A stretch of 64,000 bases of DNA from an uncultured Planctomycetales bacterium. Its GTDB lineage: Bacteria; Planctomycetota; Phycisphaerae; UBA1845; PWPN01. Below, piece after piece: positions 15,326 through 56,476 of this stretch. Each line of letters opens with the position of its first letter. The stretch's first letter is position 1. The position numbers and the translations under genes are program-made. The notes under the pieces were generated by a model. That model was not told the origin of the DNA. It did not search any database and saw only the letters and a program-made list of their open reading frames with translations. The DNA lies in contig CAYNYK010000005.1 in assembly GCA_964401335.1 (NCBI GenBank), positions 8,362 to 72,361 on the forward strand. The letters run 5' to 3'.

Positions 15326-16203
15326 ATACGCCGACCGATTCGTTGCCTGAACGCCCACAGCGACGCGCACTACGCAAACGCCTCTGGTTTCGTTTACTGG
15401 TGTACGCGGCCGGGTTCTATGTTGCCTGGTGTACGGTCTTGTATTTCTATCAGGACCGGCTGGTTTTTCCGGCCGACGCCGCGCCTGCACCGCTGTCCAA
15501 GCCTTTCAGCAATGACGCGGTGGTTACAACCTTGCCTCTCCCCGATGGCGGACAGGTGGAATCCTGGTTCTTCCCCGCCGCCTCGGCCGGCATGGATAGT
15601 CCCCGCCCGCTGGTCATCTTCTTTCACGGCAACGCCGAATTGATCGATCAGCAGGAGGACATCGTAAGCTTGTTTCGTTCCTTCGGTTGCTCGGTCCTAC
15701 TGCCGGAATATCGCGGCTACGGCCGGGCCGACGGCGTGCCTTCGCAAGCGGGTATCGTCGAAGATTGCGTGCGCTTCTATGACGAGATCGTTAAACGCGA
15801 GGACGTGGATGCAAGGCGGATCGTGTTTTACGGCCGCTCGCTCGGCGGCGGGGTGGCCGCCCAGGTTGCCGCTTGCCGAAAGCCCGCGGCCATGATTCTC
15901 GAATGTACTTTCGCGAGCGCGGCGTCCATGGCTCGCGGTTACTGGGCCCCCGAATTCCTGGCCAAACATCCGTTCCGCACCGATCGCGTATTGCCGAGCT
16001 TGGATATTCCCATCCTGATTTTTCACGGCCGACACGATACGATCATCCCCGTCGAGCATGGCCGAAGACTGCACAAGTTGACGCCGCGCAGTGTCTATGT
16101 GGAATACGATTGCGGACACAACGACTTTCCGGGATCAGCCAATCCTGATGATTATTATGATCGGTTAAGAGCTTTTCTTGTCGATTCGGGGATTTTGGAG
16201 TGA
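15322..16203 (+). CDS. Alpha/beta hydrolase (serine aminopeptidase S33/BAAT-like), N-terminal TM anchor
   Basis: HGNAE oxyanion region, nucleophile elbow GRSLGG, and C-terminal D..H (HGRHD, GHND). ATGA overlap with the upstream gene. Confidence 0.8.
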   Translation: MNTPTDSLPERPQRRALRKRLWFRLLVYAAGFYVAWCTVLYFYQDRLVFPADAAPAPLSKPFSNDAVVTTLPLPDGGQVESWFFPAASAGMDSPRPLVIFFHGNAELIDQQEDIVSLFRSFGCSVLLPEYRGYGRADGVPSQAGIVEDCVRFYDEIVKREDVDARRIVFYGRSLGGGVAAQVAACRKPAAMILECTFASAASMARGYWAPEFLAKHPFRTDRVLPSLDIPILIFHGRHDTIIPVEHGRRLHKLTPRSVYVEYDCGHNDFPGSANPDDYYDRLRAFLVDSGILE

Positions 16204-16274: not shown

Positions 16275-17129
16275 ATGACCTCTGGTTCCGTTCCGTCCAT
16301 GACCGCCGAGGAGCTTGCTCAAGGATGGCATCCCCTGCGCGTGGGTCGGCGGATCGAAGTCTATGCGGAGGTGTCCAGCACCAATACGGTTGCCTTGGAG
16401 GCGGCGGATAAAAGCGACGTCGACGGATTGGTCGTGCTGGCCGACTATCAGACCAGTGGCCGTGGACGTTTGGGGCGATCGTGGCAGTCTCCGCGGCGGG
16501 CCAGTGTCTTGTGCAGCGTGTTGCTCTTAATGGATGACCCATCGCTCCGCACCTCGGGCGGTAAACAAGACCGTGTGGCTTCAGCGGATGATCCCGGGAT
16601 CGGCGGCAGATTGACCCTGTTGGCGGCTGTCAGTGTTTGTGCTGCCGTGCGCCAGGCCACGGAAATCACCCCGAGCATCAAGTGGCCTAACGACGTGCTT
16701 ATCAATGGCCGTAAAGTGGGCGGTATTCTTATCGAATCGCGGGCCCTGAACAATTGCTTGCGGGCCTGGGTGATCGGGATCGGCCTCAATTGTCATCAGC
16801 AGGCGGGCCATTTTCCGCCGGAGTTGCGTGAGACGGCCACTTCGCTTGACCTGGCGGCCTCGCACCCTATCGATCAGACGGCCGTTGCCCGGGAGTTGCT
16901 CCGCGCGTTGGATGCACGGTTGGTTGATCCGGGAAAACCTTCCGACCGGGAACTGCATGATGAATGGAGTCGCTATGCCGAGCCCATCGGCCGGCGTGTA
17001 CGGCTCCGCTGCGACGGCCGGGAATACGCCGGCCAGACGTTGGCGGTCGAACCGCACGGTGGGTTGATCGTCCAATGTGACGGGGGTGTGCGCAAATGGT
17101 TCGATCCGTTGCGTACCACCCTGTTATAG
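16275..17129 (+). CDS. birA: Biotin--[acetyl-CoA-carboxylase] ligase
   Basis: QTSGRGRLGRSWQSP, KWPNDV...GRKVGGIL. No N-terminal HTH, so it is a group I BPL. Confidence 0.88.
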   Translation: MTSGSVPSMTAEELAQGWHPLRVGRRIEVYAEVSSTNTVALEAADKSDVDGLVVLADYQTSGRGRLGRSWQSPRRASVLCSVLLLMDDPSLRTSGGKQDRVASADDPGIGGRLTLLAAVSVCAAVRQATEITPSIKWPNDVLINGRKVGGILIESRALNNCLRAWVIGIGLNCHQQAGHFPPELRETATSLDLAASHPIDQTAVARELLRALDARLVDPGKPSDRELHDEWSRYAEPIGRRVRLRCDGREYAGQTLAVEPHGGLIVQCDGGVRKWFDPLRTTLL

Positions 17130-17195
17130 GCGTCGGCTCCGCCAGCTTTCCAGCGATGCGTTTTTTTCGATTCACGCCGATGCGTCATAAGGTGG

Positions 17196-17223
17196 CCCAT
17201 CCTTTGCGTCAGCAAAGGGTGGG
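17196..17223. terminator. Hairpin between convergent birA and the SWIM gene
   Basis: cccatcctttgc-gtca-gcaaagggtggg (12 bp, one mismatch). No T-run. Confidence 0.4.
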
Positions 17224-17299: not shown

Positions 17300-18205
17300 C
17301 TACGTCTTTTGCTTCTTTTTTCGGACAGCGGTTTTTACTTTGGGGTGTTTTGCTATACCGGTTGTATCTGCTTTGGGTTGTCTTGTCGCGACCGGGCGTT
17401 TGCGTGGCGAAGTAGTTGCCGTTTTTGTCAGTTGACGACGCGGCTTGGTTTTTGCGGCCTCGACCTCCACCTCGGCCACCGGGACCGGTGCCAAATCGAT
17501 GTCGAAAACCTCAGCCAACTCGCCCTCATCCAGCGTCCTTCGGTCGGTTTTTCTGGCTTTAGACACGACACTCTTGGCGGCATCCTCCATAACCAGTTCC
17601 TGGTGATCGACTCCCCTCAGCAGAAACAGCAGTTCGGGTTTCTCGTCCAGCCGTGCCCCGATGCCATACATCGCCGCGGCGACATGTTTGCACATGACCG
17701 CCCAGTCCGGGCAGGAGCATTTCAGGCTGATTTCGCCGGGCAGGGGAAACAACCCCTGATTTTTATCCGTAACCACGTTCATGACATGGTCGGATAACCG
17801 CCCTTGGAGTAACTCAAGAAGCGAACCCACGCGACCGGTACAGGCATCCTTGAGCCGTTGCCACTTGTTCTTGGGCAAAGGCTTGATCGCTATCCGAATA
17901 TCATAGATATCCGACCCGCTGACCTTCGCCTCGATCATGCCTTTCTGGATATCCAAGTGACAGACCGAGCCGTTCCGTACATACGTACGGCCGCGCGGCA
18001 AACGGTTTGCGTAATCGCTGAATTTCTCGAGATGCTCGCACCAGGCCTGTCCCCAAAACGTATGGGCGATTCGGCGTCCTTCCACTTTGACCGGCTGAAT
18101 GTTCATGCCCTTCTTGCGCAGCTTCTCCATTTTCTTCTGCGCCTGAGCTCGCCGCTTCCATACCGGTACATAAGGCCGCCAGCCCCAACCCCATCTATGA
18201 TACAT
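17300..18205 (-). CDS. SWIM zinc-finger protein
   Basis: CSCPDWAVMCKHVAAAMY (CxC..CxH SWIM motif). Basic K/R/T-rich C-terminal tail. Follows the SNF2 gene with a 3-nt gap. Confidence 0.8.
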   Translation of the reverse strand: MYHRWGWGWRPYVPVWKRRAQAQKKMEKLRKKGMNIQPVKVEGRRIAHTFWGQAWCEHLEKFSDYANRLPRGRTYVRNGSVCHLDIQKGMIEAKVSGSDIYDIRIAIKPLPKNKWQRLKDACTGRVGSLLELLQGRLSDHVMNVVTDKNQGLFPLPGEISLKCSCPDWAVMCKHVAAAMYGIGARLDEKPELLFLLRGVDHQELVMEDAAKSVVSKARKTDRRTLDEGELAEVFDIDLAPVPVAEVEVEAAKTKPRRQLTKTATTSPRKRPVATRQPKADTTGIAKHPKVKTAVRKKKQKT

Positions 18206-33728: not shown

Positions 33729-34048
33729 AAGCGTCTCCTCTTGAAGCCTTCTTCCCAGCGCTGAGGATCAGGACAATAAGCCGTGACCAACACCGCTGGT
33801 TCGCTCTTCCCGGCTGGAACGCCCCAAACGGCATGAATCGGTTGCCCTCTACTACCCCATTGTAACACAAGAACGCATGGGCCTTTTGGGTAATCCGGAT
33901 AATCCTCAATAATCTCCGCCTTCTCCAGAGCGGCAAGTATTTCCACCACGGTTAAATCATCATCCGCTAACTCATCGTAACCGTGTTCGGATACCTTCAC
34001 TTTTCCCTCGGCCGCAAGTTTTTTGATTAACTCGAATGTTTGATTCAT
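33725..34048 (-). CDS. DUF4258-family protein (putative toxin)
   Basis: SEHGYDELADDDL....I......II.DYPDYPKGPCVLVL........PIHAVW......VLVTAYCPDP..W fits my recollection of the DUF4258 pattern. Start set at MNQTFEL. Confidence 0.65.
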   Translation of the reverse strand: MNQTFELIKKLAAEGKVKVSEHGYDELADDDLTVVEILAALEKAEIIEDYPDYPKGPCVLVLQWGSRGQPIHAVWGVPAGKSEPAVLVTAYCPDPQRWEEGFKRRRL

Positions 34049-34125
34049 GCCTGTTGACCTCTGCTTGTCATATAGCCTACAGAATATCTTGCGGTCAAGC
34101 CCCCAGGCAAAATTATGCAGCGGTA

Positions 34126-35121
34126 TTACAACCGAGACAAATGCTCTCGCAGGACACGTCGGACACAACACAGACTTTCTCTAAGCATTCCAAGGAACTG
34201 AGGCAGATAGCGTCGAGGGCGGGCCAGGCTGAGGGTCAAGAGAAACAGGGCGATGGTCGCCAGGCTGTAACCGATAACCACGCGATCGCCGAGGCGGGTC
34301 AGTCCGTTACGCCGCATGATCCGGGTGTAATTGCGGACGATCATACGGCCGAAGGCAAAAGGCTCCGGCCGTTGGCACGGATCGTGGTGATGAACAGCTC
34401 GAGCGTTAAGGCTACGGGCAAGCCGGCCGCGCAGGTAAAGACGATAAGACATGTCACGATCTTCGCCAAGCGCGTAACCGCTCAATCCCTCGTCGAAGGG
34501 GTTTTGCACCAGTACTTCGCGACGAAACGACATGGTAGCGCCGACAATGTTTCGGGTGGGAACGATATACGATCGCAAGCGGGCAAATACCGGCGGCGCA
34601 GGCGGCCGTGGACCGTGCGGGGGCAGGGCCCACCAGCCGGCCAGAGAATAAACCAGATCGAACAGCCGCGCAGCCCCGGAAGCTCGTCGCGGCTCGATTA
34701 AAGTGCCCTCCACACCAAGCAGAAGACCTTCGGTATCCGTCGCGTAGACTGCAAGAATTTCCCGCAGAAACCCCTGATCGAGAACCACGTCATCATCGAG
34801 AAATTGCACAATCGCGCCGCGGGCATGGCGGACAGCCAGATTGCGCGAGGCAGGCAGGCCCGGAGGATCCTTACGCAGATAGACAAAGGGGATGGCCGCG
34901 GAATGACAAAGATTGTTCAAATAATCACGATCGGCCTCGGTGAGGCATCCGTCGTCAACGACGATCAGCTCGATCGGCCGCAGGCTCTGACATGTCACGG
35001 AACGTACGCAATTTTTCAGCACATCCGGGCGATCGCGCGTACAAATCACCACGGAACAGTCCGGCCGCGCCGAGGAAGCGGGGGGTATCGGATAGGTTGT
35101 TGAAGGATCGAAGGTGTACAT
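34126..35121 (-). CDS. Family 2 glycosyltransferase
   Basis: SVVICTRDRP..L..C..S...Q......ELIVVDDG and the FLDDD (DxD) motif. Confidence 0.85.
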   Translation of the reverse strand: MYTFDPSTTYPIPPASSARPDCSVVICTRDRPDVLKNCVRSVTCQSLRPIELIVVDDGCLTEADRDYLNNLCHSAAIPFVYLRKDPPGLPASRNLAVRHARGAIVQFLDDDVVLDQGFLREILAVYATDTEGLLLGVEGTLIEPRRASGAARLFDLVYSLAGWWALPPHGPRPPAPPVFARLRSYIVPTRNIVGATMSFRREVLVQNPFDEGLSGYALGEDRDMSYRLYLRGRLARSLNARAVHHHDPCQRPEPFAFGRMIVRNYTRIMRRNGLTRLGDRVVIGYSLATIALFLLTLSLARPRRYLPQFLGMLRESLCCVRRVLREHLSRL

Positions 35122-35132
35122 GGCGTCACCGA

Positions 35133-36707
35133 TTAAACCATCCCCTTCGACAACATGGCCCGTATTCTACGGTAGCCGTCACCAAGCAACTGCCGCAGTT
35201 TTTGCTTACCCTCGATGGTGAATATGACGTTACTCATCCAAGCCAGGACACACAGAACAAGCATGACCGCGATAAACAAATAGATCGGGCCGGCCAAGGC
35301 ATAGGTAGCGGCGATTAACAACACCGTGCCGAAATCAACAGGCCGACGTTCGATCCATATCAGAAAGAAGGCTACCAACACGGCAGCGCTAACTCCCAGG
35401 ATACCCGACCAGACGGCCGCCTGCAGGGCTTGAGCGGGAGTCAGGCCGGGCAGCACCAGCCATCGGCCGGCGACAATGCCGGCCAGCAGTCCGGCGGTCC
35501 AGGGCACAAAAAGGTGCCAAGGACACTCGATCAAACTGAAATGAATGGCCAGAAAGCCCAGGTGCCCGCTGATCATGAAGAACAGCAGCAGGCTGGAAAC
35601 GATGCGCGCGCCTTCCGCGTAATCGCGGGGGAACAGACGGACAAGGACATCGGACAAACCGGCGATCAAGGCACAAAGGACGAGCAGAGTAAGGGCCGTG
35701 GTCTTGAAGGCCAAAGCCAGTTTTCGATCGGCGGCGGGCGGACCCTCGGCTTCCCAAGTTTTCGTAACCGAGGTTTGCACGACGGTGACGACGGCCACGG
35801 AAATAATCAATACGGCCTGGGTCAGCAGCCGGACGCCGCCGAAAACGGCGGTCACCTCGGGTCCGTACACTTTTTGAAGATACCACATCGGATAAAACTG
35901 AAGAGTCTGCCACACGATGGCGGCCAGGGCAACCCAAACCCCGAAGCGCATCAGTCGCTCGACAACCCGATGCATGGAGCCATCGGTGCTCAAAGCCGTC
36001 AGCGACACCTGATCGGGAACCGCCCGGAGCGTCCGACCCAAACCGGGAACAACCAAAAGGGCCGAAGCGAGCAGCGTGAAACCGTAACAAACCAGCATGG
36101 CCACGGCGGTATTTCGGCCGGCCAGAGCAACCAGAACGGCCGTCGCCATGAAAGTCACGTTGCTGACCAGTTCCAGCAAACTGACGGCCCGAAACATACG
36201 CAGACCCTTGAGAATACCCATCAGCAAATAGTAGATCATCAGGGTCAGAGTCACCCCGGTGGCGATACGCGTTAACATAGTGCAAGCTTGAGGTTCCACC
36301 CCGGCGCCGTCGCGGCTCAAGGTGGCAAAAAGGAACCGGCCGATAGGTTCAGCACATAAAGCGACCACGGCGGTCAAACCAAGCCCCACGGCAAGAATCA
36401 GGATTACCGCGCGACGAAGGAATGCCCGCAGGGCCTGTTTCGTTTCATACTGGGGAACATAACGGGCGAGGGCCTCGTTCAGACCCAGGCTGCAAAAGGG
36501 ATCGAGAATATTGACGACGATCAGGGCAATCTGTAATAGACCAAACTCGCCAGTGGTCAACAGCCAGGCAAGCACGACTCCGCGCACCAAACCGATGAAC
36601 CGCGAAGCGAACACGGTTGGCAGGTATACGCTCAGCGATTCACTAATGGTTTCAGACCGAAAAAGAAACGGCCTGCGGACAAGATTGGTACCGGCGGAAA
36701 TGGTCAA
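35133..36707 (-). CDS. Polysaccharide flippase (Wzx/MOP superfamily)
   Basis: ~14 predicted TM helices, 524 aa, EPS-locus context. Confidence 0.75.
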   Translation of the reverse strand: MTISAGTNLVRRPFLFRSETISESLSVYLPTVFASRFIGLVRGVVLAWLLTTGEFGLLQIALIVVNILDPFCSLGLNEALARYVPQYETKQALRAFLRRAVILILAVGLGLTAVVALCAEPIGRFLFATLSRDGAGVEPQACTMLTRIATGVTLTLMIYYLLMGILKGLRMFRAVSLLELVSNVTFMATAVLVALAGRNTAVAMLVCYGFTLLASALLVVPGLGRTLRAVPDQVSLTALSTDGSMHRVVERLMRFGVWVALAAIVWQTLQFYPMWYLQKVYGPEVTAVFGGVRLLTQAVLIISVAVVTVVQTSVTKTWEAEGPPAADRKLALAFKTTALTLLVLCALIAGLSDVLVRLFPRDYAEGARIVSSLLLFFMISGHLGFLAIHFSLIECPWHLFVPWTAGLLAGIVAGRWLVLPGLTPAQALQAAVWSGILGVSAAVLVAFFLIWIERRPVDFGTVLLIAATYALAGPIYLFIAVMLVLCVLAWMSNVIFTIEGKQKLRQLLGDGYRRIRAMLSKGMV

Positions 36708-38224
36708 AGGGCGTTCTCCGCACCGACAGGCTGAACGCGATCAAACCGCGTGACCGGCTTTCCAACGACGGCGGGCGCCTGCGGTCGAATCGGCTGCGGA
36801 CGTAACAGGTAATCCAGGGCAACAATAACTCCGCCAAAACCGAAAAACAAAGCATTGGTGAATGGATACACGCTGGTCTCACGAAACATGCCATCGATGA
36901 AGAAGACGACAAAGAGCACCCAGAATAAAACGATGATGTCCCGATCGATCAACCCCTCGGCGCAGGCGGGCAGTCGGCTGTACAACCGCAGACTGATCCG
37001 GAGCAAGGCAACCAGGAGGGCCACGAAAAGCAGCAGACCGATCAGGCCGGTCTCGGCCAGAAGACTGAGAAAGTTGTTATGCTCCATCGCCTGGGAGGCG
37101 AACCGGTAGTAGGGGCTTTGAATATCGCGCGCGTAGCGGGGGGCGACATCGCGAAAATGCCCGAACCCAATGCCCACGAAGGGGTGGTCGAGCCAGATGT
37201 CCCGGCTGAGCAAAGCCAGACCGATGCGCATGGTAATCGGATCGGTATCCATAACGCCGCCCTGGGAACGCCTGGCGGAACGGAACCCTTCCTCGTTAAT
37301 GAAAAACGCAAGGATGGCCGCCACCGTGAGCAAACAAACGGCCGCCGTCCGACTCCAACGCCGACGGGTGTAGATGAGCCAGACCATCGTGCCGAGAATC
37401 AAACCGAGCCAGACGCTACGGGTATGGGTCCAAAAAATCACCGGCAGCATGGCCAGGCACACCATGTACAACACCATGCGGGCGGGTCTATGCACCTTGC
37501 GAATCAGAACAAGATTGTTGAAAAAACAAAAAAGCAAGGCCACTCCCATGGCCGGGCTGACCAGAAACGGTCCGCGAACCCGACCCCAGTGGATGCCCTT
37601 GGTGGGGTCGGCAATAAATCGGGGAAAAACCAAGGACCAGAGTTTCAGGTGCTCGCACCAGCCAATGAAGGTGAGATAGAGGCTGACCAGCAGGAAGAAA
37701 ATCAACAAGTGGCGGAAATGGGCTTCATGATGTACGGCATGCAGAACAAGAAAAAAGACCATGAAGGCAAACCAGTATCCGCCGATCAGGCGATAATGGA
37801 CCGTGGCCACGGCGACGGTTTGGAACCCGCTGACGGCGGCGGAAAGCGTGAAATAGCCCAAAATCATCGCCATCAGCCAATACACCGCTCCGGCCGGCCG
37901 AATACGCGAGCGACCAAGAAGCCACATGGCCATCCAAAGCAAAAACACCACCACGATGGCAATCCGATCGATTGTCAAGGCGAAAAAGAAGGGTACGCGC
38001 ACGCGCCATAATTCCTCGTGCAAGGCGATAACCGTAACGAACCAGAGCAGAACGGCAATCAGAAGGTCGCCCAGTACGGCCCAGGCCGCAAAGAGGCCCA
38101 AACCCGCGGCGGCGGCCAGCACCACCAAAAAGTAAGGCGCGGGGGTCAACAAGATGGCGACGACCAACAGGACCGTCGCCAGCAACATCACTGCATCCAA
38201 TCTTCGTTCCGCCAGTAGTTGCAT
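36704..38224 (-). CDS. O-antigen ligase/polymerase-like membrane protein (Wzy_C family)
   Basis: Polytopic membrane protein with a TRSVWLG...-type loop and a large periplasmic loop. EPS-locus context. 4-nt overlap with the flippase gene. Confidence 0.7.
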   Translation of the reverse strand: MQLLAERRLDAVMLLATVLLVVAILLTPAPYFLVVLAAAAGLGLFAAWAVLGDLLIAVLLWFVTVIALHEELWRVRVPFFFALTIDRIAIVVVFLLWMAMWLLGRSRIRPAGAVYWLMAMILGYFTLSAAVSGFQTVAVATVHYRLIGGYWFAFMVFFLVLHAVHHEAHFRHLLIFFLLVSLYLTFIGWCEHLKLWSLVFPRFIADPTKGIHWGRVRGPFLVSPAMGVALLFCFFNNLVLIRKVHRPARMVLYMVCLAMLPVIFWTHTRSVWLGLILGTMVWLIYTRRRWSRTAAVCLLTVAAILAFFINEEGFRSARRSQGGVMDTDPITMRIGLALLSRDIWLDHPFVGIGFGHFRDVAPRYARDIQSPYYRFASQAMEHNNFLSLLAETGLIGLLLFVALLVALLRISLRLYSRLPACAEGLIDRDIIVLFWVLFVVFFIDGMFRETSVYPFTNALFFGFGGVIVALDYLLRPQPIRPQAPAVVGKPVTRFDRVQPVGAENAL

Positions 38225-38269
38225 GAATGAACCAGTGAATTAACCGAGAGCCTGTCCGAGCCTCGGCCT

Positions 38270-39208
38270 TTACATGCGGCGATAGAGGAAACCGGGGATC
38301 GGAAACCGCCGCTGATTCAGCACGAGGCCGATCACCTTGCCGTGGGCCAGTTCGACCCGTTTTCTGGCCTCGGCCACGGACTCGCGACGGGTCACGGTGG
38401 CCTTGGTGACCAGCAGGACACCGTCAGTACAGCCGGCCAAGGCCTGGACCGTCGCCTGGGTATTGACCGGCGGGGCATCGATGATCACATGGTCATACGC
38501 CGCCGCCAGATCGCGAACCAAATTGCCGATGTTCTGGCGTTGCATCAGGGAGGAAACGGCGCCCTGAACCTGGCCCGCGACCAGTACACTAAGCCGACCT
38601 TCCTCCAGTTGTTGGGCGGCCGTGACCAAAGTCTTCTGGCCGGCCAGTACCTCCACCACGCCGGGCGCCGATTGCAGACCCAGAATCCGGTGGAGCATGG
38701 GACGACGAAGGTTGAAATCCACCAAGGCGATCCGCAGTCCGCGCTCGGCGGCGCAGCCGGCCAAGGCCAAGGCCACGGCAATCTGACTGACGCCTTCGCG
38801 CGGCTCGGCCGCCGTCACCACTACCGATTTCGGAGCGATTTGTCCCGGGGCAAAGAAGACCGACGCCCAGAGCTGATCCACGGCGTCGCGAGCCCCATGA
38901 CGCAAGGTCGCGGAACGCCCGGCGGTCGAGCGCGAGGCCCTCGGCGCCGAAACGGTAACCGACGACGCGGACTTTTCGGATACGGACCTCCGCGACTGGG
39001 CCAACTCCTCCTCGGATAATTTCACATCGTCGGAGGGCCCCAGGCCGGCACCTTCGGGCAAGGCAAGGTCTTCCTCATCCGGTATCAATAAGTCTTCTTG
39101 CTCGCCGGAAGAGCGCCCCTCGGAGGGCGTCGGCCGGGAAGACTCATCTTCCGACCAGTCGTTCTCGCCGTTCGCGGGATCCCAATCGTTTCCTTTGTCG
39201 CGGACCAT
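38270..39208 (-). CDS. BY-kinase (CpsD/CapB/Wzc C-terminal)-like P-loop protein with degenerate Walker A
   Basis: Walker B VIIDAPPV and A'-like LVDFNLRRP are present. The Walker A position reads AAEPREGVSQ, with no GK[ST]. The N-terminal 110 aa are acidic and disordered. Confidence 0.7.
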   Translation of the reverse strand: MVRDKGNDWDPANGENDWSEDESSRPTPSEGRSSGEQEDLLIPDEEDLALPEGAGLGPSDDVKLSEEELAQSRRSVSEKSASSVTVSAPRASRSTAGRSATLRHGARDAVDQLWASVFFAPGQIAPKSVVVTAAEPREGVSQIAVALALAGCAAERGLRIALVDFNLRRPMLHRILGLQSAPGVVEVLAGQKTLVTAAQQLEEGRLSVLVAGQVQGAVSSLMQRQNIGNLVRDLAAAYDHVIIDAPPVNTQATVQALAGCTDGVLLVTKATVTRRESVAEARKRVELAHGKVIGLVLNQRRFPIPGFLYRRM

Positions 39209-48221: not shown

Positions 48222-49583
48222 TCACAGATGCCAGGGGGCGCGCATCGGCCGGCTCATCATCCGGTTGGCCTCGGCATCACCGACGAATTCCTCCTTCTGC
48301 GGATCCCATTGCAACGGCCGATGCAGCCGGGCGGAGATATTGCCGATATGACAGATGGACACCGAGCGATGCCCGATGGCCACGTCGCAGATGCATCTTT
48401 CACGGCTGCGGATGCAATCCAGCCAGTTCTGATGGTGGTCGTCGCTCTTGTAAAGGCGGATGTCGTTGCCGCCCAACTCGATTTTGAGCAATTCCGGATC
48501 GGAGGCCTGGATTTCAATGCGGCTGACGAAGATCCAGCCGTTGGTACCGGTGAACTTCACACCGTTGCCGAATTTCGTGCCGTCCTCGTAGGACTGTTCT
48601 TGAGTATGGCAGAACAAGTCGGTACCGTCGGCATATTTATAATGGATATCAAACTCACCGGCTACAGTGTGCGGCCCCTGGGCGTGGAAGGTCGCATTCG
48701 TGGCGTCGACATAAACCGGCCCGCTTTCGTCGGTGCCGAGACCCCACTGGGCAATATCGTTATGATGCGCGCCCCAATCGGTCAACACGCCGCCGGAATA
48801 ATCATACATCCAGCGGAACTGGTAGTGCACCAAATTCTGGTGATAATCAACATAAGGCGCCGGCCCGAGCCAGAAATCCCAATCCAACTCCGGCGGTGGG
48901 GTAGTGGCGGGTTTCCATTGGCCGGCGTCCACGCCGTGCAGAACGGTATCCACTCGTTTTATCTTGCCAATCTTGCCGTTGCGGACGAGTTCGCAGGCCT
49001 GGCGGAAGCGGGCGTCCGAACGCTGCTGACTGCCTGTCTGGAAAACGGTGCCATAACGCCGGGCGGCGGCAACCATGGCCTTGCCTTCCTCGATGGTCAG
49101 GGTCAGCGGCTTTTCGCAATACACATCCTTGCCGGCCTCCATAGCCGCTATGGCAATCAGCGCGTGCCAGTGATCGGGGGTGACGACAAAGACCCCGTCG
49201 ATATCCTTGCGATCGAGCAGGCGGCGAAAATCCTTGTAGACCCCAACGCGGCGCCCGGCCTTTGCCAGACATAAGCGGGCCGCCTCGTCCACGTGATTGC
49301 TGTCCACGTCGCAGACGGCGGCCACATCAATCTGGTCTTTCAGACGTTCGAGGCAATTGTTGTCCAGGTGATGCCGACGACCAAGGTCGCCGGTACCGAT
49401 GAATCCAACGACGATTTTTTCGCTTGGCAGTTTCGGTTTTTTATCATCCGCCATGACCAGCGCTCCTGTGCTTTGCACGGCCCGGGCATAGCCGGACAGG
49501 GCGGTGACGGCCGCCAATCCGCCGGCGGAATACTTGAGCAAATCCCTGCGGGCAATGGGTTTTTGTTCTTTCACGGATAGCAC
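48222..49583 (-). CDS. Gfo/Idh/MocA-family oxidoreductase with Tat signal
   Basis: RRDLLKYSAGGLAAV twin-arginine leader. Rossmann GFIGTGDLG. EKPLTLTIEEG. Confidence 0.88.
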   Translation of the reverse strand: MLSVKEQKPIARRDLLKYSAGGLAAVTALSGYARAVQSTGALVMADDKKPKLPSEKIVVGFIGTGDLGRRHHLDNNCLERLKDQIDVAAVCDVDSNHVDEAARLCLAKAGRRVGVYKDFRRLLDRKDIDGVFVVTPDHWHALIAIAAMEAGKDVYCEKPLTLTIEEGKAMVAAARRYGTVFQTGSQQRSDARFRQACELVRNGKIGKIKRVDTVLHGVDAGQWKPATTPPPELDWDFWLGPAPYVDYHQNLVHYQFRWMYDYSGGVLTDWGAHHNDIAQWGLGTDESGPVYVDATNATFHAQGPHTVAGEFDIHYKYADGTDLFCHTQEQSYEDGTKFGNGVKFTGTNGWIFVSRIEIQASDPELLKIELGGNDIRLYKSDDHHQNWLDCIRSRERCICDVAIGHRSVSICHIGNISARLHRPLQWDPQKEEFVGDAEANRMMSRPMRAPWHL

Positions 49584-49633: not shown

Positions 49634-50965
49634 TTACAGGTGCCATGGGGCTCGCATCGGACGGCCGACCATTTGGTTGGCCGCCTCGTCGCCGACTATT
49701 TGTTCCTTTTGCGGGTCCCACTTGATCGGCCGCGCGAGCCGAATCGAGATATTCCCCAAATGGCACACGGTGGCCGACCGATGCCCGATCTCGACGTCGC
49801 AGATGCAACGCTTGCGGCTCCGGATGCAATCAAAAAAATTGTTGTGATGATCTTCGCTGAAATAGACGGTTTTGTCGTTGCGGGTGAATTTGGCCCGCAA
49901 GACGGCCGGGTCCGACGCTTCAATCCGAGTACGGTTCACGAACAGCCAGCCGCTGTCACACTCGAAATGCACGCCGTCCTGAGGGGCCGTTCGGCAAGTC
50001 ACTTCTACACCGTTGGCATATTTGTACTTGATGACAAAGGTGTGCGGCACGTCGTAGGGTCCGTCGGTAAAAAATTCGCCCCGCCCGTCGATCTCGACCG
50101 GCCCGGAACCGTCCATGTCCAGGGCCCACTGAGCGATATCGTTATGATGCGCGCCCCAATCGGTCAACTTGCCACCGGAATAATCGTAGAACCAGCGAAA
50201 CGTATGATGCGAGCGAATGGGCATGTAATCGACATAAGGCCGCGGGCCTAGCCAGAAGTTCCAATCGAATCCGGCGGGTGGAGTCTGGACCGGCTGCCAT
50301 TCGCCCGGCCCGACCTGCCCGACACGCGTTTCGATTTTTTGAATATCGCCGAGTAACCGGTTGCGCATGATTTCGACGGCCAGCCGAAAACGCGGATGCG
50401 AGCGTTGCTGGCTGCCGGTTTGAAAGACGGTGCCGTAGCGTCGGGCGGCGGCGACGAGGGCTTGGCCTTCCTCGATGGTCAAGGTCAGCGGCTTTTCGCA
50501 ATAAACATCCTTGCCGGCCTCCATAGCCGCCAGAGCGGTGAGGGCGTGCCAGTGATCGGGTGTGGCGATCAGGACGGCGTCAATATCCTTCTGCTCCAGC
50601 AGCTTGCGGAAATCGTGGTACATCGGCACCTTGTGGCCGCGCTTGCGCAGGATGCTGCCGGCGGCCAGGGCCCGACGGTTTTCGTCCAAGTCACAGACCG
50701 CGCCGAACTCAACACGGTCGTCACGCATGAGCCGATCTTCCAGGTGCCAGCGACGGCCAAGCTCGCCCGTACCAATGACGGCCATCACCACCCGCTCGCT
50801 CGGTGGTGGTCCTTTTTTCGTGTCGGTCATGACCAACGGCGCCGCGTTGCGTGCGTTCCGCGCGCAACCGGCCAAGGTGGACGCTGCCGCCAACCCGGCC
50901 GTCGCGGTTCGGACGAAGGGTCGCCGATTGTTGGTTGGACGATCACTCACCGTGCAAACTCCCAT
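49634..50965 (-). CDS. Gfo/Idh/MocA-family oxidoreductase with Tat signal (tandem paralogue)
   Basis: NNRRPFVRTATAGLAAAS leader. The same EKPLTLTIEEG and TGSQQRS blocks as its neighbour. Start moved to 50965. Confidence 0.85.
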   Translation of the reverse strand: MGVCTVSDRPTNNRRPFVRTATAGLAAASTLAGCARNARNAAPLVMTDTKKGPPPSERVVMAVIGTGELGRRWHLEDRLMRDDRVEFGAVCDLDENRRALAAGSILRKRGHKVPMYHDFRKLLEQKDIDAVLIATPDHWHALTALAAMEAGKDVYCEKPLTLTIEEGQALVAAARRYGTVFQTGSQQRSHPRFRLAVEIMRNRLLGDIQKIETRVGQVGPGEWQPVQTPPAGFDWNFWLGPRPYVDYMPIRSHHTFRWFYDYSGGKLTDWGAHHNDIAQWALDMDGSGPVEIDGRGEFFTDGPYDVPHTFVIKYKYANGVEVTCRTAPQDGVHFECDSGWLFVNRTRIEASDPAVLRAKFTRNDKTVYFSEDHHNNFFDCIRSRKRCICDVEIGHRSATVCHLGNISIRLARPIKWDPQKEQIVGDEAANQMVGRPMRAPWHL

Positions 50966-51315
50966 AGGGTTGGGGTATGGCAACGTTTTCCGCGGTCGGC
51001 AATGCGGGGCCGAGCGATAAGCGCACTTTTCCCGGCCGCCACACCACCGCTTTCTCCCCCCTGGCTCGGGGGTCGGGCATTGTAACCCATCATGGCCCGG
51101 CAGAGCAAAACCGCCTGTCCGGCTCCGGAAAAGAGTGGTGACCGTTCCGGCGGGGCCGCGGCAATTTTTACCGGAATGCGAATTTCTCTTGGGACGCAAT
51201 TTCTCGCCGGATGTCATTTGCTGAATGGAGCTATGGCAAGGCGGTGCATTCCAATTGAGAGCATTGCTTCATCAAGATGTTTTCATGGAACAAAACATTT
51301 GGGTATAATGAATGT

Positions 51316-51648
51316 ATGAAATTGCCTGGTGCCGATCTGGCTATTGTCGAGGATCACAAGCTGCGGGAATATGTGCTCAATCCCAACCATCCCGTGGGAC
51401 GACACCACGCGGCGTTGTTTTCCATGCTCTTGGGCATCGATTTGAACAACGCACATCTATTAAAGAAAGCCCTCCTCGAAGCCGCAAAAGTTGCCGATGT
51501 GGATAAGGAGATAATGACAGGCTACGGGCGCAAGTATGAGATGCGTTTCACGATGTCCGGGCCGAGTGGGGATAAAACCGTGCGGGCGGTTTGGATCGTT
51601 AACGAAGGCAGTGATCGGCCTCGGCTGGTCACCTGCTTTGTGGAGTGA
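51316..51648 (+). CDS. DUF6883-like protein (toxin-like partner of the DUF4926 gene)
   Basis: KLREYVLNPNHPVGRHHAALF...LGID and RAVWIVNEGSDRPRLVTCF match my recollection of DUF6883. This needs an HMM check. Confidence 0.55.
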   Translation: MKLPGADLAIVEDHKLREYVLNPNHPVGRHHAALFSMLLGIDLNNAHLLKKALLEAAKVADVDKEIMTGYGRKYEMRFTMSGPSGDKTVRAVWIVNEGSDRPRLVTCFVE

Positions 51649-51651
51649 GCA

Positions 51652-51867
51652 ATGTTGAAAGAACATGATGTGGTAACCGTGACAACGGATGTGCCGGAGG
51701 AAAGGTTGTCGGCGGGCGACGTGGGTGCTATCGTTCACCGCTACCCGGAGAACGATGTCTATGAAGTCGATTTTGTCGATGAGCACGGCCGTGCCCGAGG
51801 CGTGGTAACCCTGAGCGGTTCTCAACTCCTGCGCCTGAACCTGTCATCTCTCCTGACGGCATCCTGA
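51652..51867 (+). CDS. DUF4926-like small protein
   Basis: DVV.....VPEE.L.AGDVGAIVH.Y...DVYEVDFVDEHGR...VVTLS..QL. Starts 3 nt after the upstream stop. Confidence 0.55.
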   Translation: MLKEHDVVTVTTDVPEERLSAGDVGAIVHRYPENDVYEVDFVDEHGRARGVVTLSGSQLLRLNLSSLLTAS

Positions 51868-51930
51868 TCCAACGCCTTTTTATCACGGACAGGGAAGCTT
51901 TCGTAGGTCGCCAGCCACCCTGTCACTCTG

Positions 51931-52032
51931 TCATCGCTCCCCCATCTCGAAACGAGGTGGGCCACCCGACTGAAGATCGGCCGGTTACGAAAGTTCATCA
52001 TCACTCCCCACATCTGAAGACATGGGCCCCCC
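51931..52032 (+). repeat. Dispersed hairpin-bearing repeat, two adjacent modules (copies A1 and A2)
   Basis: A1 (51931-51967) is tcatcgctccc-[hairpin ccatctcg-aaa-cgaggtgg]-gccaccc. A2 (51975-52032) is 52/60 identical to 55442-55500. Confidence 0.7.
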
Positions 52033-52037
52033 GACCA

Positions 52038-52241
52038 TCACAACAAGCTCTCATCATTGGGAATCAAAAACCACAAGGCCAGGTAGACCAGAATACCCGG
52101 GAAGGCGGCCGAGGCCACCGGGATGATGACATAAAGGAGCCGCACGCGGAAGGGAGATATGCCGTAATACTCGGCCAGCCCCCCGCAGACGCCGGCAATC
52201 ATACGATCATTCCGAGAACGGCGAAGATATTGTTGGGCCAT
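52038..52241 (-). CDS. PspC-domain membrane protein
   Basis: RSRNDRMIAGVCGGLAEYYGISPFRVRLLYVI.. Start set at MAQQYL. Confidence 0.8.
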   Translation of the reverse strand: MAQQYLRRSRNDRMIAGVCGGLAEYYGISPFRVRLLYVIIPVASAAFPGILVYLALWFLIPNDESLL

Positions 52242-52275
52242 AATGGGTTCCTCCGAAAAAGCGGCTCGTTGATTG

Positions 52276-53184
52276 TTACTTTTTCCGCAATCGGAATTCG
52301 ACCACACGCTCGTGCGGATCGCTGCAGTTGCGATGGGCCTTGACGTATTCCCAGCGGCCGGCGTCCTCGAAGATTTGCCGGACGGCCGCGTGCTGATCGT
52401 AACCGATCTCCGCCAGCAGCAAACCGCCATCAGCCAGAACGGCCGGGGCCTCGTTTGCCAGACGACGGTACATGCCCAAACCGTCGCCGCCGGGCGGGAC
52501 CAGGGCGATTCGCGGCTCATGCTCGCGCACGTTGGGCGGAAGCGTCGGCCATTGCTGCTCGCTGATATACGGCGGGTTGGTGGCAAGCACATCGAATCCG
52601 CCGGGTGGTACCACTTCGGCCGACAGGGTCACACCGTCGGCCTGGACCAGCCGCATACGATCGCCCACGTCATGCCGCTGCACGTTACCGGCCGTAACGG
52701 CCAGAGCGTCCGCGGAGATATCGCTGCCCACCACCCGGGCGTTGGCCGCGTATTTTGCGATGGCAACACCCACGCAACCGCTACCCGTACCCAGGTCCAA
52801 AATGTTCCACTCGCGCAAGGGCTCGGCCCGGCACAACTCGATTACCCGTTGCACAAGGGCCTCCGTCTCCGGCCGGGGAATCAGGACGGCCGGCGTTACG
52901 GTAAATTCCAACGAGTAAAACTCCCGCTGACCCAGCAGATAAGCGACCGGAGTATGTTCGCCGGCCTGGCGGACCAGTTCGCGAAACGCCGCCCGCTGTT
53001 CGTCCGTCGGCTCGGTTTCCCAGCGCGTGTACAGATCGATCTTCTTGCAGCCGCAGGCGCGGGCCAGAAGCAGTTCGGCCGTCAACCGCCCGCCCTCGAC
53101 CTGTCGCTCGTTAAACCATTGGGTCGTCCATTGCAGCAGACGGCCGACGGTCCAGGTGGTTTGTTGTTCTGACGTTTCGGACAT
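52276..53184 (-). CDS. prmC: Release-factor glutamine N5-methyltransferase
   Basis: ILDLGTGSGCVG (SAM motif I) and ATNPPYI (NPPY). Start moved to MSETSEQ. Confidence 0.88.
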   Translation of the reverse strand: MSETSEQQTTWTVGRLLQWTTQWFNERQVEGGRLTAELLLARACGCKKIDLYTRWETEPTDEQRAAFRELVRQAGEHTPVAYLLGQREFYSLEFTVTPAVLIPRPETEALVQRVIELCRAEPLREWNILDLGTGSGCVGVAIAKYAANARVVGSDISADALAVTAGNVQRHDVGDRMRLVQADGVTLSAEVVPPGGFDVLATNPPYISEQQWPTLPPNVREHEPRIALVPPGGDGLGMYRRLANEAPAVLADGGLLLAEIGYDQHAAVRQIFEDAGRWEYVKAHRNCSDPHERVVEFRLRKK

Positions 53185-53282
53185 AACCGTTACTATACCG
53201 AAGAACTCAAAAACCTTGCAATAACACAGCGTTCTTGCCGCGAACCCGATGTAATCCGCGGAATACGGCATGAGGGAGAGAC

Positions 53283-53429
53283 AGAGAGATGGAGAGAGGG
53301 AGAAAAATCAAAGATACCCCATTATTCTCGAAAGTAGATCCTCATAATTCGTCCCCCATCGCGAAAGTGTATGACATAGGATGCGCAGATACATTGAAAA
53401 TCATGGAACTTGGTTCTCTCCATCTCTCT
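53283..53429. repeat. 15-bp perfect inverted repeat pair separated by 117 bp
   Basis: agagagatggagaga (53283-53297) and tctctccatctctct (53415-53429). The intervening sequence contains a degenerate copy of the tcccccatc.cgaaa module. Confidence 0.6.
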
Positions 53430-53515
53430 ATCACTCCGTCTGCTTCCTTACAATCCCCATCTTTCCTTCGCTGGTGCCGGCTGCGTCGCGTTCTTCTTGA
53501 TCCGACAACTGGCGG

Positions 53516-55141
53516 TCATGGCGCGGCGGTCTCGGAGTCAGAGTGGTCGTCTTCGGCCTTGTCGACCGGCTTGGTCGCGGAACGCTGGGCTGGCGGCGTC
53601 GGCCGTGGTGGTGACATCCGAAGGATCGATTTCCAGGTATTGACATAACCCGGATTGGGTATCCGTTTGCCATCGATAAACAGAGACGGGGTGCTGTTGA
53701 CTTTCACGTACTCTAGCTCTTTTTCATCGACCTGATCCCGACCAAGGTTGGCCCCTTCTTCAGCATCGCGCTTGATCCGCGCCAAAACTTCATCGCCATT
53801 CATCGCGGCAACAAAAGCGTCCGCGTCAAGACCGATCCGCCGGGCGTATTCGACAAACAAGGCCGTATTCTTTACCCAATCCGCATGATGTTCAAACAAC
53901 AGGCCGTGCATTTTCCAAAAGGCGTCATCGCCGCCGAGCATCATCGCCGCCTCGGCGGCCCGGGCGGCTTGACAGGCTTTCGGATGCAGGTTGAAACTCA
54001 CGTTCGGATTGCATCCATCGGTACAGATCGGCCAGTGCTTGAAAACCACCCGCAGACCCCCGTTTTTCTCGCCTAACGGAACGACAGTATCATAGAACCA
54101 CTTCTCATATCTGCGACAGGACGGACACTGGAAATCGCTGAAGATCACGACCGTATGACGGGCATCGGCCGGCCCGAAGGTCGGACGGCCTTCGATGGGA
54201 ATATCCACCCGCGGAGCGATCTGCCAGGCGGTCGCCATGTGCTGCCAGGAACCCTCGTAACGCTGTTTAAGTTTCTGGTATCCCTGCTCGGTCCGGGCAA
54301 GATCACTCTCGTATTTTTCCAGACGCTTGGCGGCCTGCTTGATGGTTTCCTGATCCATTTTAAGCCGTATTTCCACCATGCGGCTTTCGTAGCCGCGCCA
54401 CAGGTACAGATGGGCAACCGCGAAGGTCAACAGGATTACCACCGGGGCGACGGCCAGCATCCACCAGTGCGGCCAGTCGCTCACCAATTCGGAAACGCGC
54501 ATCGCCGCGGAAGATTCAGGGGCGGCCGGCGCTTCGGGCAGCCGCCTCGGCCAAAGCAGCAGAACGCAGACAAACAGCAACAGGCTGATGACATGGCTGA
54601 CAAAACACCAAGGGCACCAGTAATCCAGTTGGGTAAACATCACCACGTCAAGGTAAACACTGACCGCCAGCCCGACGGCGGCCACCAGCACCAACAGCAG
54701 ATGGACCCACCAACGCGAGGGACTGACCTGTCCAACTAACACCAACCACCAGACCACCGCGATAAAATAAAACAGACCCAGTTGAGCGGTCGGAAGAGCG
54801 GCGGTCTCCGGTTGGCTGCCCAGCTTGATCTCCCCCCACTTGCTGAGGGCCACCTCTTCACAACTGGAGGTTTCAAACGCCTCGCAGACCTGTTCGAGAA
54901 GACCTTTTTCCTTTTCAGGCTTTTTGGCCTGATCGGATGAGGCTTTCGCCGCGTCCGGGCGGGTGGCCGGCGCGGTTGCCGGTTGCGTTGCGGCTTTTCG
55001 GGCTTCATCTACCGTTTGCTGGAAACGCTTGACTTTAATATCGAAGTGCTCGATCGTCAGCGCATAGCTGATCCATACACCGGCCACGCTCAACACGATG
55101 GCCAGTATCCATACAATCCATCGCCCCAATGGTGATCTCAC
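53516..55141 (-). CDS. VKOR-family membrane protein fused to a DsbA/thioredoxin-like domain
   Basis: N-terminal polytopic part with a Cys pair (CEAFETSSC) and CPWC. C-terminal domain with the CPSC active site (FSDFQCPSCRRYE). Confidence 0.75.
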   Translation of the reverse strand: MRSPLGRWIVWILAIVLSVAGVWISYALTIEHFDIKVKRFQQTVDEARKAATQPATAPATRPDAAKASSDQAKKPEKEKGLLEQVCEAFETSSCEEVALSKWGEIKLGSQPETAALPTAQLGLFYFIAVVWWLVLVGQVSPSRWWVHLLLVLVAAVGLAVSVYLDVVMFTQLDYWCPWCFVSHVISLLLFVCVLLLWPRRLPEAPAAPESSAAMRVSELVSDWPHWWMLAVAPVVILLTFAVAHLYLWRGYESRMVEIRLKMDQETIKQAAKRLEKYESDLARTEQGYQKLKQRYEGSWQHMATAWQIAPRVDIPIEGRPTFGPADARHTVVIFSDFQCPSCRRYEKWFYDTVVPLGEKNGGLRVVFKHWPICTDGCNPNVSFNLHPKACQAARAAEAAMMLGGDDAFWKMHGLLFEHHADWVKNTALFVEYARRIGLDADAFVAAMNGDEVLARIKRDAEEGANLGRDQVDEKELEYVKVNSTPSLFIDGKRIPNPGYVNTWKSILRMSPPRPTPPAQRSATKPVDKAEDDHSDSETAAP

Positions 55142-55441
55142 GCATTTGCTCCCATGCCTAAAGTATTAGCGAATCCTATCAACTTAATCCTGTCTCGACG
55201 CGACAGGCCTACCTTCTATGGACTGCGGTGTCTATGACATCGCTTTTTCTGGATGACGGAGAGGGTGCCAGGTGGCCCGCCTCCTCTGGAGGTGGGGGAG
55301 CGATGACCACGCCACGAAACCGAACATGCTTCATTCTCCTGGTAACACCATGTTGCTCTGTCGAGATTCCCCTCCCGCGTTACAGGGGAAAGGATTCCCC
55401 CATATGTCTGGATGCGAGAAAGGATTCTCGTACCAGCATAA

Positions 55442-55500
55442 GGTCGTCCGGTTACGAAAGTTCGTCATCGCTCCCGCACGTCTGAAGACGTGGGCCACCC
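55442..55500 (+). repeat. Dispersed hairpin-bearing repeat (copy B)
   Basis: ggtcgtccggttacgaaagttcgtcatcgctcccgcacgtctgaagacgtgggccaccc. Perfect 6-bp stem cacgtc-tgaa-gacgtg. Confidence 0.7.
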
Positions 55501-55693
55501 AATCCTCATCGCTCTTCGGTCTCACTCGGCCTTACCACCATAGGTCGCTCAACACATACGCCGCCGCTGGCGGTGCATTCCGTGAATTCATTTCGCCCCC
55601 CCCCACTTTCCCAACCAGCTACCGGCCCCCCCAACTGAGGCGGAGGCGGGCACATTTGCAGGCGAGGCGGTTCCCTTCTAAACTCTACCGGTT

Positions 55694-56476
55694 ATGAGTG
55701 CAATCAAAGTCCTTATTCTGCGTACCGCCGGCACTAACTGCGACGAGGAAACCGCTTATGCCTGGGAACTGGCCGGAGCGGTTACCGCTCGCGTGCATAT
55801 TCGCGAGCTGATGGATCGCCCCGCCCTGCTCGGCGATTATGGGATTTTAACCATTCCGGGCGGTTTCAGCTACGGTGACGATATTTCCGCCGGCAAGATA
55901 CTGGCCGTCCAGTTGGTCCACTACTTATCCGACGCTCTGCGGGATTTCGTTGCCGCCGGTAAGCTAATACTGGGGATCTGCAACGGATTTCAGGTATTGA
56001 TCAAGGCCGGTCTGCTGCCCCGAGCGGGCGAACAGAACGGCTCACGTCCCGCCATGACCCTGACCCAGAACGACTCCGCCCGTTTCGAGGATCGTTGGAT
56101 TCACCTGCGTTGTGGGGGAAGGCCAAACGCTTTTCTGCCGCCGGATCGGATTCTAGCCATGCCCATCGCCCACGGCGAGGGCAAACTGGTCGCGGCCGAC
56201 CGGGCCACGCTGGATCGCGTTATCGCCGGCGGACATGCCGCCCTGACCTACTGCGACGCCCAAGGCCACCCGGGCGGATATCCCATCAATCCCAACGGCA
56301 GCGAGGGCGATATCGCCGGGTTGATCGACGCTACCGGCCGCATCCTGGGCCTCATGCCCCACCCGGAGCGGCACATCCACGCCACGCAGCACCCGCAATG
56401 GACGCGACGAAAGGCCGATCGCGGCGATGGCCGTGTTTTATTCGAGACGGCCATCCAAACCGCCCGATCCAATTGA
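55694..56476 (+). CDS. purQ: Phosphoribosylformylglycinamidine synthase, glutaminase subunit
   Basis: PGGFSYGD, GICNGFQ (catalytic Cys), HGEG, NPNGS..DIAG, MPHPER. Confidence 0.85.
   Translation: MSAIKVLILRTAGTNCDEETAYAWELAGAVTARVHIRELMDRPALLGDYGILTIPGGFSYGDDISAGKILAVQLVHYLSDALRDFVAAGKLILGICNGFQVLIKAGLLPRAGEQNGSRPAMTLTQNDSARFEDRWIHLRCGGRPNAFLPPDRILAMPIAHGEGKLVAADRATLDRVIAGGHAALTYCDAQGHPGGYPINPNGSEGDIAGLIDATGRILGLMPHPERHIHATQHPQWTRRKADRGDGRVLFETAIQTARSN

Follow-up and report, generated by a model that had tools for sequence, protein, structure and literature searches.

Why should a short hairpin repeat with constant flanks and a changing stem recur in the intergenic DNA of a planctomycete? 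The question is raised by a 64,000-nt stretch (the window) of the genome of an uncultured Planctomycetales bacterium (GenBank assembly GCA_964401335.1, contig CAYNYK010000005.1, positions 8,362 to 72,361 of the forward strand), in which an inspection of the letters alone (the original prediction) had marked three modules of such a repeat and proposed a lineage-specific family, either of the kind of repetitive extragenic palindromes (REPs) and miniature inverted-repeat transposable elements (MITEs) or of small structured RNAs. Systems that pair REPs with a REP-associated tyrosine transposase (RAYT) are best known from Proteobacteria; for the superphylum of Planctomycetes, Verrucomicrobia and Chlamydiae (PVC) there is, to our knowledge, only a brief catalogue entry so far. 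Here we find that the repeat is a real family, whose members are very probably REP elements of the Phycisphaerae (Planctomycetota), joined into dimers like those of bacterial interspersed mosaic elements (BIMEs) and REP doublets forming hairpins (REPINs), and served by a RAYT. The decisive result is that copies of the element bracket a RAYT gene in related genomes.

Four copies of one unit in the window

The window holds four copies of a unit of ~47 nt: the three modules known earlier, which lie where they had been placed, and a fourth, copy C, which had been missed. The unit consists of a 12-nt left flank, GTCATCGCTCCC; a hairpin of ~9 bp with a CCC/GGG foot and a loop of 3-4 nt; and a right flank, (GGG)CCACCC, whose full right end reads, for example, GGGCCACCC; its core measures 37 nt. 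A covariance model, R1, built from 12 copies and searched against the whole window with filters off, recovered copies A1 (51926-51972, plus strand; 65.1 bits, E = 1.2e-15), A2 (51993-52037, plus strand; 48.2 bits, E = 3.5e-11), B (55460-55505, plus strand; 60.7 bits, E = 1.7e-14) and C (55265-55311, minus strand; 63.0 bits, E = 4.4e-15), and the next-best match anywhere in the 64 kb scored 13.7 bits. It is the whole unit that is significant by R1; the 12-mer flank alone, with two mismatches allowed, gives 10 matches in the window against 9.3 expected, which is not significant.

Copy A1 runs from GTCATCGCTCCC through the stem CCCATCTCG-AAA-CGAGGTGGG to CCACCC; as RNA it folds into a 9-bp hairpin (z = -2.0), and the REP reading, with a GTGG tag 5' of the hairpin, falls on the minus strand. 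Copy C, found by repeat and pattern searches, forms an inverted repeat with A1 (I1; 37 nt, 86%) and is laid out as GTCATCGCTCCC, CCCACCTCC-AGA-GGAGGCGGG and CCACC. Copy B has GTCATCGCTCCC, the stem (G)CACGTC-TGAA-GACGTG and then GGGCCACCC, while A2, the most degenerate copy, has ATCATCACTCCC, CACATC-TGAA-GACATG and GGGCCCCC. The copies are paired in two ways: C is the left half of an inverted, head-to-head dimer with B, the GTGG tags outermost, and A1 and A2 stand head-to-tail in tandem.

A2 and B have a 24-nt linker in common, AAGATCGGCCGGTTACGAAAGTTC between A1 and A2 (51973-51996, plus strand) and AAGGTCGTCCGGTTACGAAAGTTC ahead of B (55440-55463, plus strand), within a direct repeat (D16; 51973-52008 versus 55440-55475) that is 89% identical; CCGGTTACGAAAGTTC, exact in both linkers, has two matches in the window against 0.54 expected. 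The high identity reported earlier for A2 (51975-52032) and B (55442-55500) stands, although the count of 52 in 60 becomes 51 of 59 columns with one 1-nt gap. In the C/B dimer, the outer parts of the spacer region (spacer, 55312-55439) are complementary to each other (inverted repeat I7, 55289-55325 versus 55446-55482; 37 nt, 73%), and positions 55262-55508 folded as single-stranded DNA reach -56.1 kcal/mol (z = -5.85), with none of 200 shuffles as good. No further copies of the spacers and flanks of the window copies were present in any locus examined. Additional fragments of the repeat had been listed at 51904, 53355 and 55541, and these are at chance level or escape recovery: TAGGTCGC occurs twice against 1.27 expected, and the 53355 fragment is not retrieved by R1 at E<=10.

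Compensatory change keeps the hairpin

Among 12 copies found through their flanks alone, 92.5% of stem cells pair, compared with 32-49% when the 3' partners are slid, and six of the nine stem pairs have changed on both sides, which bears out the view that the stems differ while the fold is preserved. With 28 distinct copies aligned to R1, drawn from the window and from eleven loci of related genomes, the corresponding values are 94.4% and 32-51%; pattern matches were called real if a hairpin was present, so that the pairing percentage is partly circular. This circularity is limited, because the compensatory changes, the taxonomic coherence and the independent recovery of copies beside a transposase gene do not hinge on that choice. 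The hairpin is kept by compensatory change.

The stems fall into two classes, which recur and join as heterodimers with one of each. Class I, represented in the window by A2 and B, pairs CA[C/T]GTC(C) with (G)GAC[G/A]TG; class II, represented by A1 and C, pairs CCA[C/T]CTC[C/G] with [C/G]GAG[G/A]TGG. As had been described, A1 keeps GTCATCGCTCCC and GGGCCACC around a stem of different sequence, and its departure from A2 and B is not free drift but the difference between two recurring classes. A coding repeat was considered and rejected, since the distance from flank to flank varies (16, 17 or 18 nt) and any reading frame would thus be broken.

Eight differences separate A2 from B; in five of them A2 has A where B has G, and four of these five lie on CpG positions of B, including the symmetric pair on the two stem arms. 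These counts agree with the original prediction, whose explanation for them, deamination at methylated CpG, is not supported: the window has a CpG observed/expected ratio of 1.185 and a TpG/CpA ratio of 0.985, with no excess, all four CpG changes are on one strand, and four events are too few to identify a mutational process. The two stem mismatches of A2, C.A and A.C on the plus strand, are G.T pairs on the minus strand, and because the changes turn G-C into G.T on that opposite strand, the hairpin is kept there.

Compensatory change in a hairpin would also suit a structured RNA, whether a small RNA or a cis-acting element of an untranslated region such as a protein-binding site or a 3'-end stabiliser. 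Two further observations fit such an element: 18 of the 20 non-Watson-Crick stem cells are of transition type, G.U on one strand or the other, and the copies are suitably placed, A1 and A2 just 3' of two convergent genes and B and C each facing a downstream gene in a divergent region. The wobble pairs, however, mark no consistent transcribed strand. Across the 28 copies, 12 of these cells form G.T on the GTGG strand (the opposite strand to the plus-type reading) and 6 do so on the other, the remaining 2 being different mismatches; assigning a strand of action from them (RNA from the other strand) was tried and abandoned, the split of 12 versus 6 not being significant, and the sequences single out neither strand as the active one. 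Copies are found in both orientations, as inverted dimers and as tandem pairs, their neighbouring genes vary among loci, and a scan of the whole window at Rfam gathering thresholds returned no match. Intrinsic terminators were likewise rejected: no T-run comes after the hairpins, which lead into CCACCC on one strand and into GGAGCG on the other, and of the six terminator-like sites between 51600 and 55800 none falls on a copy. Together with the transposase gene bracketed in five of six loci (the sixth, L065, has an upstream copy only) and the orthologous sites empty in L068, L066 and L067, both presented below, these results leave a structured RNA unlikely. That half of the original proposal is not favoured, and the REP-like half is upheld by the RAYT link in relatives.

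Copies of the element bracket a RAYT gene in relatives

In strict-pattern scans of genome and metagenome contig collections, most matches were due to chance: 26 of 30 genome-collection loci and 19-20 of 24 metagenome loci lacked a hairpin between the flanks. True copies were found in a Phycisphaerales metagenome-assembled genome (MAG; loci L001 and L008), in a Planctomycetales MAG (L011 and L020) and in the metagenome contigs L041, L045, L050 and L058; L036 and possibly L058 are doubtful members. The element was seen in assemblies of Phycisphaerae or Planctomycetota only, in at least nine besides that of the window and with unrelated flanks, and its description as lineage-specific proves roughly right.

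This distribution already refutes an account of the locus in which the four copies arose by local duplication within 3.6 kb, belong to no wider family and resemble one another as hairpins by coincidence. All four strong copies do lie in 51.9-55.5 kb, and A2 and B share their linker besides the core, as such an account would have it; the stems nevertheless co-vary, and the copies are divided between two separate intergenic regions in differing orientations. We consider local duplication extremely improbable.

The metagenome contig L045 carries three copies of the element, two of which bracket an open reading frame (ORF; 1347-1928) that encodes a RAYT of 193 aa. One copy (1291-1337, minus strand) ends 10 nt before the ATG and the other (1940-1986, plus strand) starts 12 nt after the stop codon. 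The protein scores 81.6 bits with the NCBIfam model NF047646, REP_Tyr_transpos (cut-off 80), and 24.5 bits with Pfam Y1_Tnp (cut-off 23), and it aligns with E. coli TnpArep (PDB 4ER8; E = 1e-5) at the HUH motif (PEHVHVM with PEHMHCI) and at the tyrosine motif (DYCHKNPV with DYIYINPV). Each mark of RAYT membership, namely the HUH motif, the tyrosine within Y-x3-NP and a score above the family cut-off, is therefore present.

Five further loci encoding homologues were sampled, their element copies located by R1, and in all six loci copies lie within ~60 nt of the ends of the RAYT gene. The gene at 10001-10582 of L059/60/61 has copies at 9943-9990 (minus), 10599-10646 (minus) and 10757-10804 (plus); that at 68-649 of L063 has copies at 9-57 (minus), 666-714 (minus) and 799-847 (plus), plus two more minus/plus dimers; and that at 506-1087 of L064 has copies at 448-495 (minus) and 1099-1146 (plus). 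In these three loci and in L045, the copy upstream of the gene is inverted relative to the outermost one downstream, and the CCACC ends of both face away from the gene. The gene at 10001-10582 of L062 has variant copies on both sides in direct orientation, which makes five loci with copies on both sides; the sixth, L065, has a copy upstream only (347-395, minus strand) of its gene at 406-987, and the contig ends after the gene. The search for an associated RAYT that the original prediction had proposed is thus positive, in relatives. The RAYT homologues number 265, mostly of 193 aa, and their names, where given, are Phycisphaerae, Phycisphaerales or Planctomycetes. Their motifs, EHVH, WT and YCHKNP, give no clean fit to any published TnpA-Y1 subclass consensus.

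Two observations on these contigs stand somewhat apart. In L062, from a more distant Phycisphaerales, the RAYT gene is flanked by units of ~94 nt that contain a variant of the element, two on each side (9707-9914 and 10635-10779), all in one orientation. A second hairpin type, GCACTGCTC-aNa-GAGCAGTG followed by GCACC, with a further form CACTGGGTG-acaag-CACCCAGTG-GCACC, adjoins element copies in two unrelated contigs (L050, ~3075-3100; L062, ~11830-11860, ~15300-15330 and 15385-15415), an arrangement suggestive of an additional REP class, tagged GGTGC, and of mosaic clusters like BIMEs.

A transposase between hairpins also calls to mind the autonomous insertion sequences of the IS200/IS605 type, of which the units might be ends or remnants, or else a MITE moved by another transposase. 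The partner protein does belong to the Y1 HUH superfamily, which includes the IS200 transposases (Pfam Y1_Tnp), the copy number is low, and the direct copies that flank the L062 gene are arranged like IS200/IS605 left and right ends. Yet the L045 protein clears the cut-off of the RAYT equivalog model (81.6 bits against 80) and stays below that of the IS200 model (19.1 bits against 55), and of the five loci with both flanks readable, four (L045, L059, L063 and L064) have inverted copies as their outermost flanking ones. Copies are also dispersed without the gene (in the window and in L001, L008, L011 and L020), no TnpB gene is called beside the transposase gene in L059-L063, and, the REP dimer itself apart, neither terminal inverted repeats nor target duplications were seen at the boundaries with the syntenic locus L068. 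We judge this origin very unlikely.

The family consensus fits the definition of a REP

On the opposite strand, the unit reads G-GTGG, a G+C-footed hairpin of 9 bp with a loop of 3-4 nt, and then GGAGCGATGA[C/T]. By the operational rule for REPs (PMC6006769), a stem of 7 bp or more stands on a G+C-rich foot and closes a loop of 2-5 nt, and GTAG or GTGG lies 0-2 nt to its 5' side; spelled out for the stem, this means at least seven fully paired basal bp, with at least three G/C among the first four stem bases. The family consensus satisfies this rule. Since GGGCCACC is GGTGGCCC on the other strand, GTGG abuts the CCC foot directly, and 23 of the 29 aligned copies retain CCACC, the other six being A2 (CCCCC), L045:1211 (ACACC) and four L063 copies (GCACC); we infer that GTGG acts as a functional tag. 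The 37-nt core and 9-bp stem, in copies situated between ORFs, correspond to the short extragenic stem-loop (~20-40 nt) expected of a REP, perfect stems of 8-9 bp are found in L001, L045, L050, L063 and L064, and the loop of 3-4 nt and the CCC/GGG foot of the window copies accord with the rule. Dimers are present both in the window and in L063, where minus/plus pairs stand at 3304/3437 and 3821/3954.

Several findings weigh against assigning these repeats to a REP-RAYT system. No RAYT gene was found by tblastn in the 64-kb window, and none is present in L001, L008, L011 or L020, so that the partnership is one seen in relatives only; in L062, moreover, the flanking copies are direct rather than inverted. 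Every copy in the window has a stem defect: there is one transition-type mismatch in each of A1 and C, there are two in A2, and B contains a G.G or a bulge. Read as REPs, A1 is left with an A.C mismatch and B with a bulge, only C and A2 are fully paired, and those only with G.T pairs allowed, so that not all copies pass the strict 7-bp rule. The copy number looks low for REPs, with four copies (perhaps five) in 64 kb, four of them within 3.6 kb, and two strict-pattern matches in each of two related MAGs of the genome collection; L063 has seven copies in 10.6 kb. The tag is GTGG rather than GTAG, and a conserved 12-nt module past the hairpin is atypical of described REPs.

The possible fifth member is the 13.7-bit match (17191-17223, minus strand; E = 0.046), an atypical hairpin of 12 bp, CCCACCCTTTGC-tgac-GCAAAGGATGGG, which is followed by CCACC, is without the GTCATCGC module or left flank, and sits between the long convergent ORFs 16275-17129 (plus) and 17300-18205 (minus). 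The window has three stems of at least 8 bp followed by CCACC or GCACC, where Markov simulations yield 0.47 +/- 0.67. The evidence that this hairpin is REP-like is weak, and it could be an unrelated one.

Orthologous sites are empty in a related genome

The region syntenic with the window in MAG GCA_964642815.1 (L068; the same MAG as L011 and L020) is ~87% identical over 15.7 kb and contains no copy of the element, its orthologous intergenic sites being empty. Homology breaks at 51871-52032, which holds A1 and A2 and corresponds in L068 to 2.75 kb with two extra genes; at 53200-53501, which holds no copy and corresponds to 130 nt; and at 55254-55632, which holds C and B and corresponds to 65 nt. 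The window segments that hold the four copies are thus exactly non-homologous stretches. The more distant purQ loci L066 and L067 have no copies either. Absence from these sites indicates that gains or losses of the element happen within the time that divides related species, a behaviour that fits mobile DNA and not a conserved regulatory RNA.

The two extra genes opposite A1 and A2 (L068, 4075-6828) encode proteins of 475 aa and 272 aa without Pfam matches; the A1/A2 pair therefore marks an indel breakpoint. The middle break, in the PrmC-VKOR intergenic region, measures 302 nt in the window against 130 nt in L068, and a 26-nt inverted repeat pair, GAGGGAGAGACAGAGAGATGGAGAGA and TCTCTCCATCTCTCTATCACTCCGTC (88% complementary), brackets 117 nt there (53272-53440). 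This stretch, of which there is no second copy in the loci examined, is possibly a short insertion unrelated in type to the REP elements.

Genes and other features around the copies

All four copies are intergenic, between long ORFs: A1 and A2 occupy 51868-52037, between converging DUF4926 and PspC genes, and C and B occupy 55142-55693, between diverging VKOR and purQ genes. The surrounding genes encode Gfo/Idh/MocA oxidoreductases, a DUF6883/DUF4926 pair, PspC (52038-52243, minus), PrmC (52276-53271, minus), a VKOR-thioredoxin fusion (53516-55141, minus), PurQ (55694-56476, plus) and NagB. Among PurQ homologues that carry a name, the closest (59-73% identity) come almost entirely from Phycisphaerae MAGs, with two labelled Planctomycetes only. 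We suspect that the DUF6883/DUF4926 pair (51277-51867, plus), which lies immediately 5' of A1 and whose domains were assigned from the L068 orthologues, is toxin-antitoxin-like. The Gfo/Idh/MocA-type genes are two tandem paralogues (48222-49583 and 49634-51217, minus) that are 71-80% identical over long stretches (repeat families D1-D3).

Three Logan contigs of the same organism with identical purQ (L031, L033 and L034) start only 41-79 nt 5' of that gene, next to C-rich tracts just right of the C/B dimer (window ~55596-55650), while a fourth, L032, crosses the dimer unchanged; these starts may be assembly breaks at homopolymers or strain variation at the site. Farther away, at 34000-38300, AT skew is strongly positive (0.24-0.37) where long genes on the minus strand encode polytopic membrane proteins, beside a glycosyltransferase-like gene. 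The skew fits an ordinary effect of codon or amino-acid composition, in what may be a polysaccharide gene cluster.

Discussion

The repeats of this locus are thus, with high probability, REP elements of the Phycisphaerae that a RAYT serves, and the original interpretation as a whole is partly supported. They share several features with the E. coli REP/BIME and TnpArep system: a short, G+C-footed extragenic hairpin has an unpaired GT[A/G]G tag at its 5' foot; two hairpin types alternate in orientation (Y and Z in E. coli), comparable to classes I and II here; and a gene for an HUH/Y1 transposase is bracketed by elements, here in the relatives, with 4ER8 aligning at the HUH and tyrosine motifs. 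The present family differs in its GTGG rather than GTAG tag, in its shorter and simpler stems (9 bp, loop 3-4 nt) and in an extra conserved 12-nt module, GGGAGCGATGAC, 3' of the hairpin. E. coli has REP copies in the hundreds, whereas the density here appears far lower, and the protein is only distantly related (E = 1e-5).

The REPIN-RAYT systems of P. fluorescens (PMC3116915, PMC3337134) likewise have a transposase encoded elsewhere and elements that are present or absent between related genomes. Their REPIN halves are near-identical and separated by a short spacer, whereas here the halves have different stems and the spacer in the window is 148 nt; the A1/A2 pair, being tandem, is also unlike an inverted REPIN. 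Closer by taxonomy are the GTAG-tagged REP families of the PVC superphylum treated in PMC3733652, namely those of Rhodopirellula baltica and the GTAG-20 family of Opitutus terrae, which has a GTGG tag. The text of that survey describes REPs with sub-families that differ by complementary stem changes, with G.T pairs, with head-to-head and head-to-tail dimers and with heterodimers of two hairpins, and the PVC families resemble the present one in superphylum, in the GTGG tag variant, in stems of 6-9 bp and in very short loops (PMC3733652). This likeness is drawn from the descriptions in the text of PMC3733652, which names no Phycisphaerae species. Elements of the IS200/IS605 type share the Y1 HUH enzyme, and the IS608 TnpA recognises subterminal single-stranded hairpins together with a tetranucleotide at the hairpin foot; apart from the direct hairpins of L062, which resemble their left and right ends, the present family is set off from them by the failed IS200 model, by flanking hairpins that are mostly inverted and by hairpins dispersed without the gene.

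By analogy with E. coli TnpArep and its REPs and with IS608 (PMC6006769), the RAYT would bind the hairpin while the DNA is single-stranded, probably at the replication fork, and would recognise the stem by its shape but the tag and the flanks by their sequence. Such a mode of recognition would account for flanks and a stem foot that stay constant around a co-varying stem interior. The enzyme would then cut and rejoin the DNA at the element, and its action could spread elements through intergenic DNA or remove them. That inserted hairpins also act on the host, for instance as a protection for the 3' ends of the transcripts that converge at 51.9-52.0 kb, is a speculation.

What this means for how REPs work is limited: existing knowledge is unchanged, and the interest is modest, chiefly for annotation and comparative genomics, with little to surprise specialists in mobile DNA. 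New here is a defined REP family with a partner transposase family (~265 homologues) for the Phycisphaerae, a class known largely from metagenome bins. The hairpins become annotatable and need not be mistaken for small RNAs or terminators; they account for intergenic indels between related genomes, and they flag sites at which short-read assemblies and synteny comparisons disagree. A bolder proposal, which we put forward tentatively and think somewhat doubtful, is that they represent a distinct, undescribed REP-RAYT lineage confined to the Phycisphaerae, defined by elements with two recognition modules, the GTGG tag and a 12-nt GGGAGCGATGA[C/T] tail, by two obligatory stem classes and by persistence at a very low copy number. 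If true, this lineage would offer a natural experiment on how far a RAYT reads structure as against sequence, and on how REPs persist with a handful of copies.

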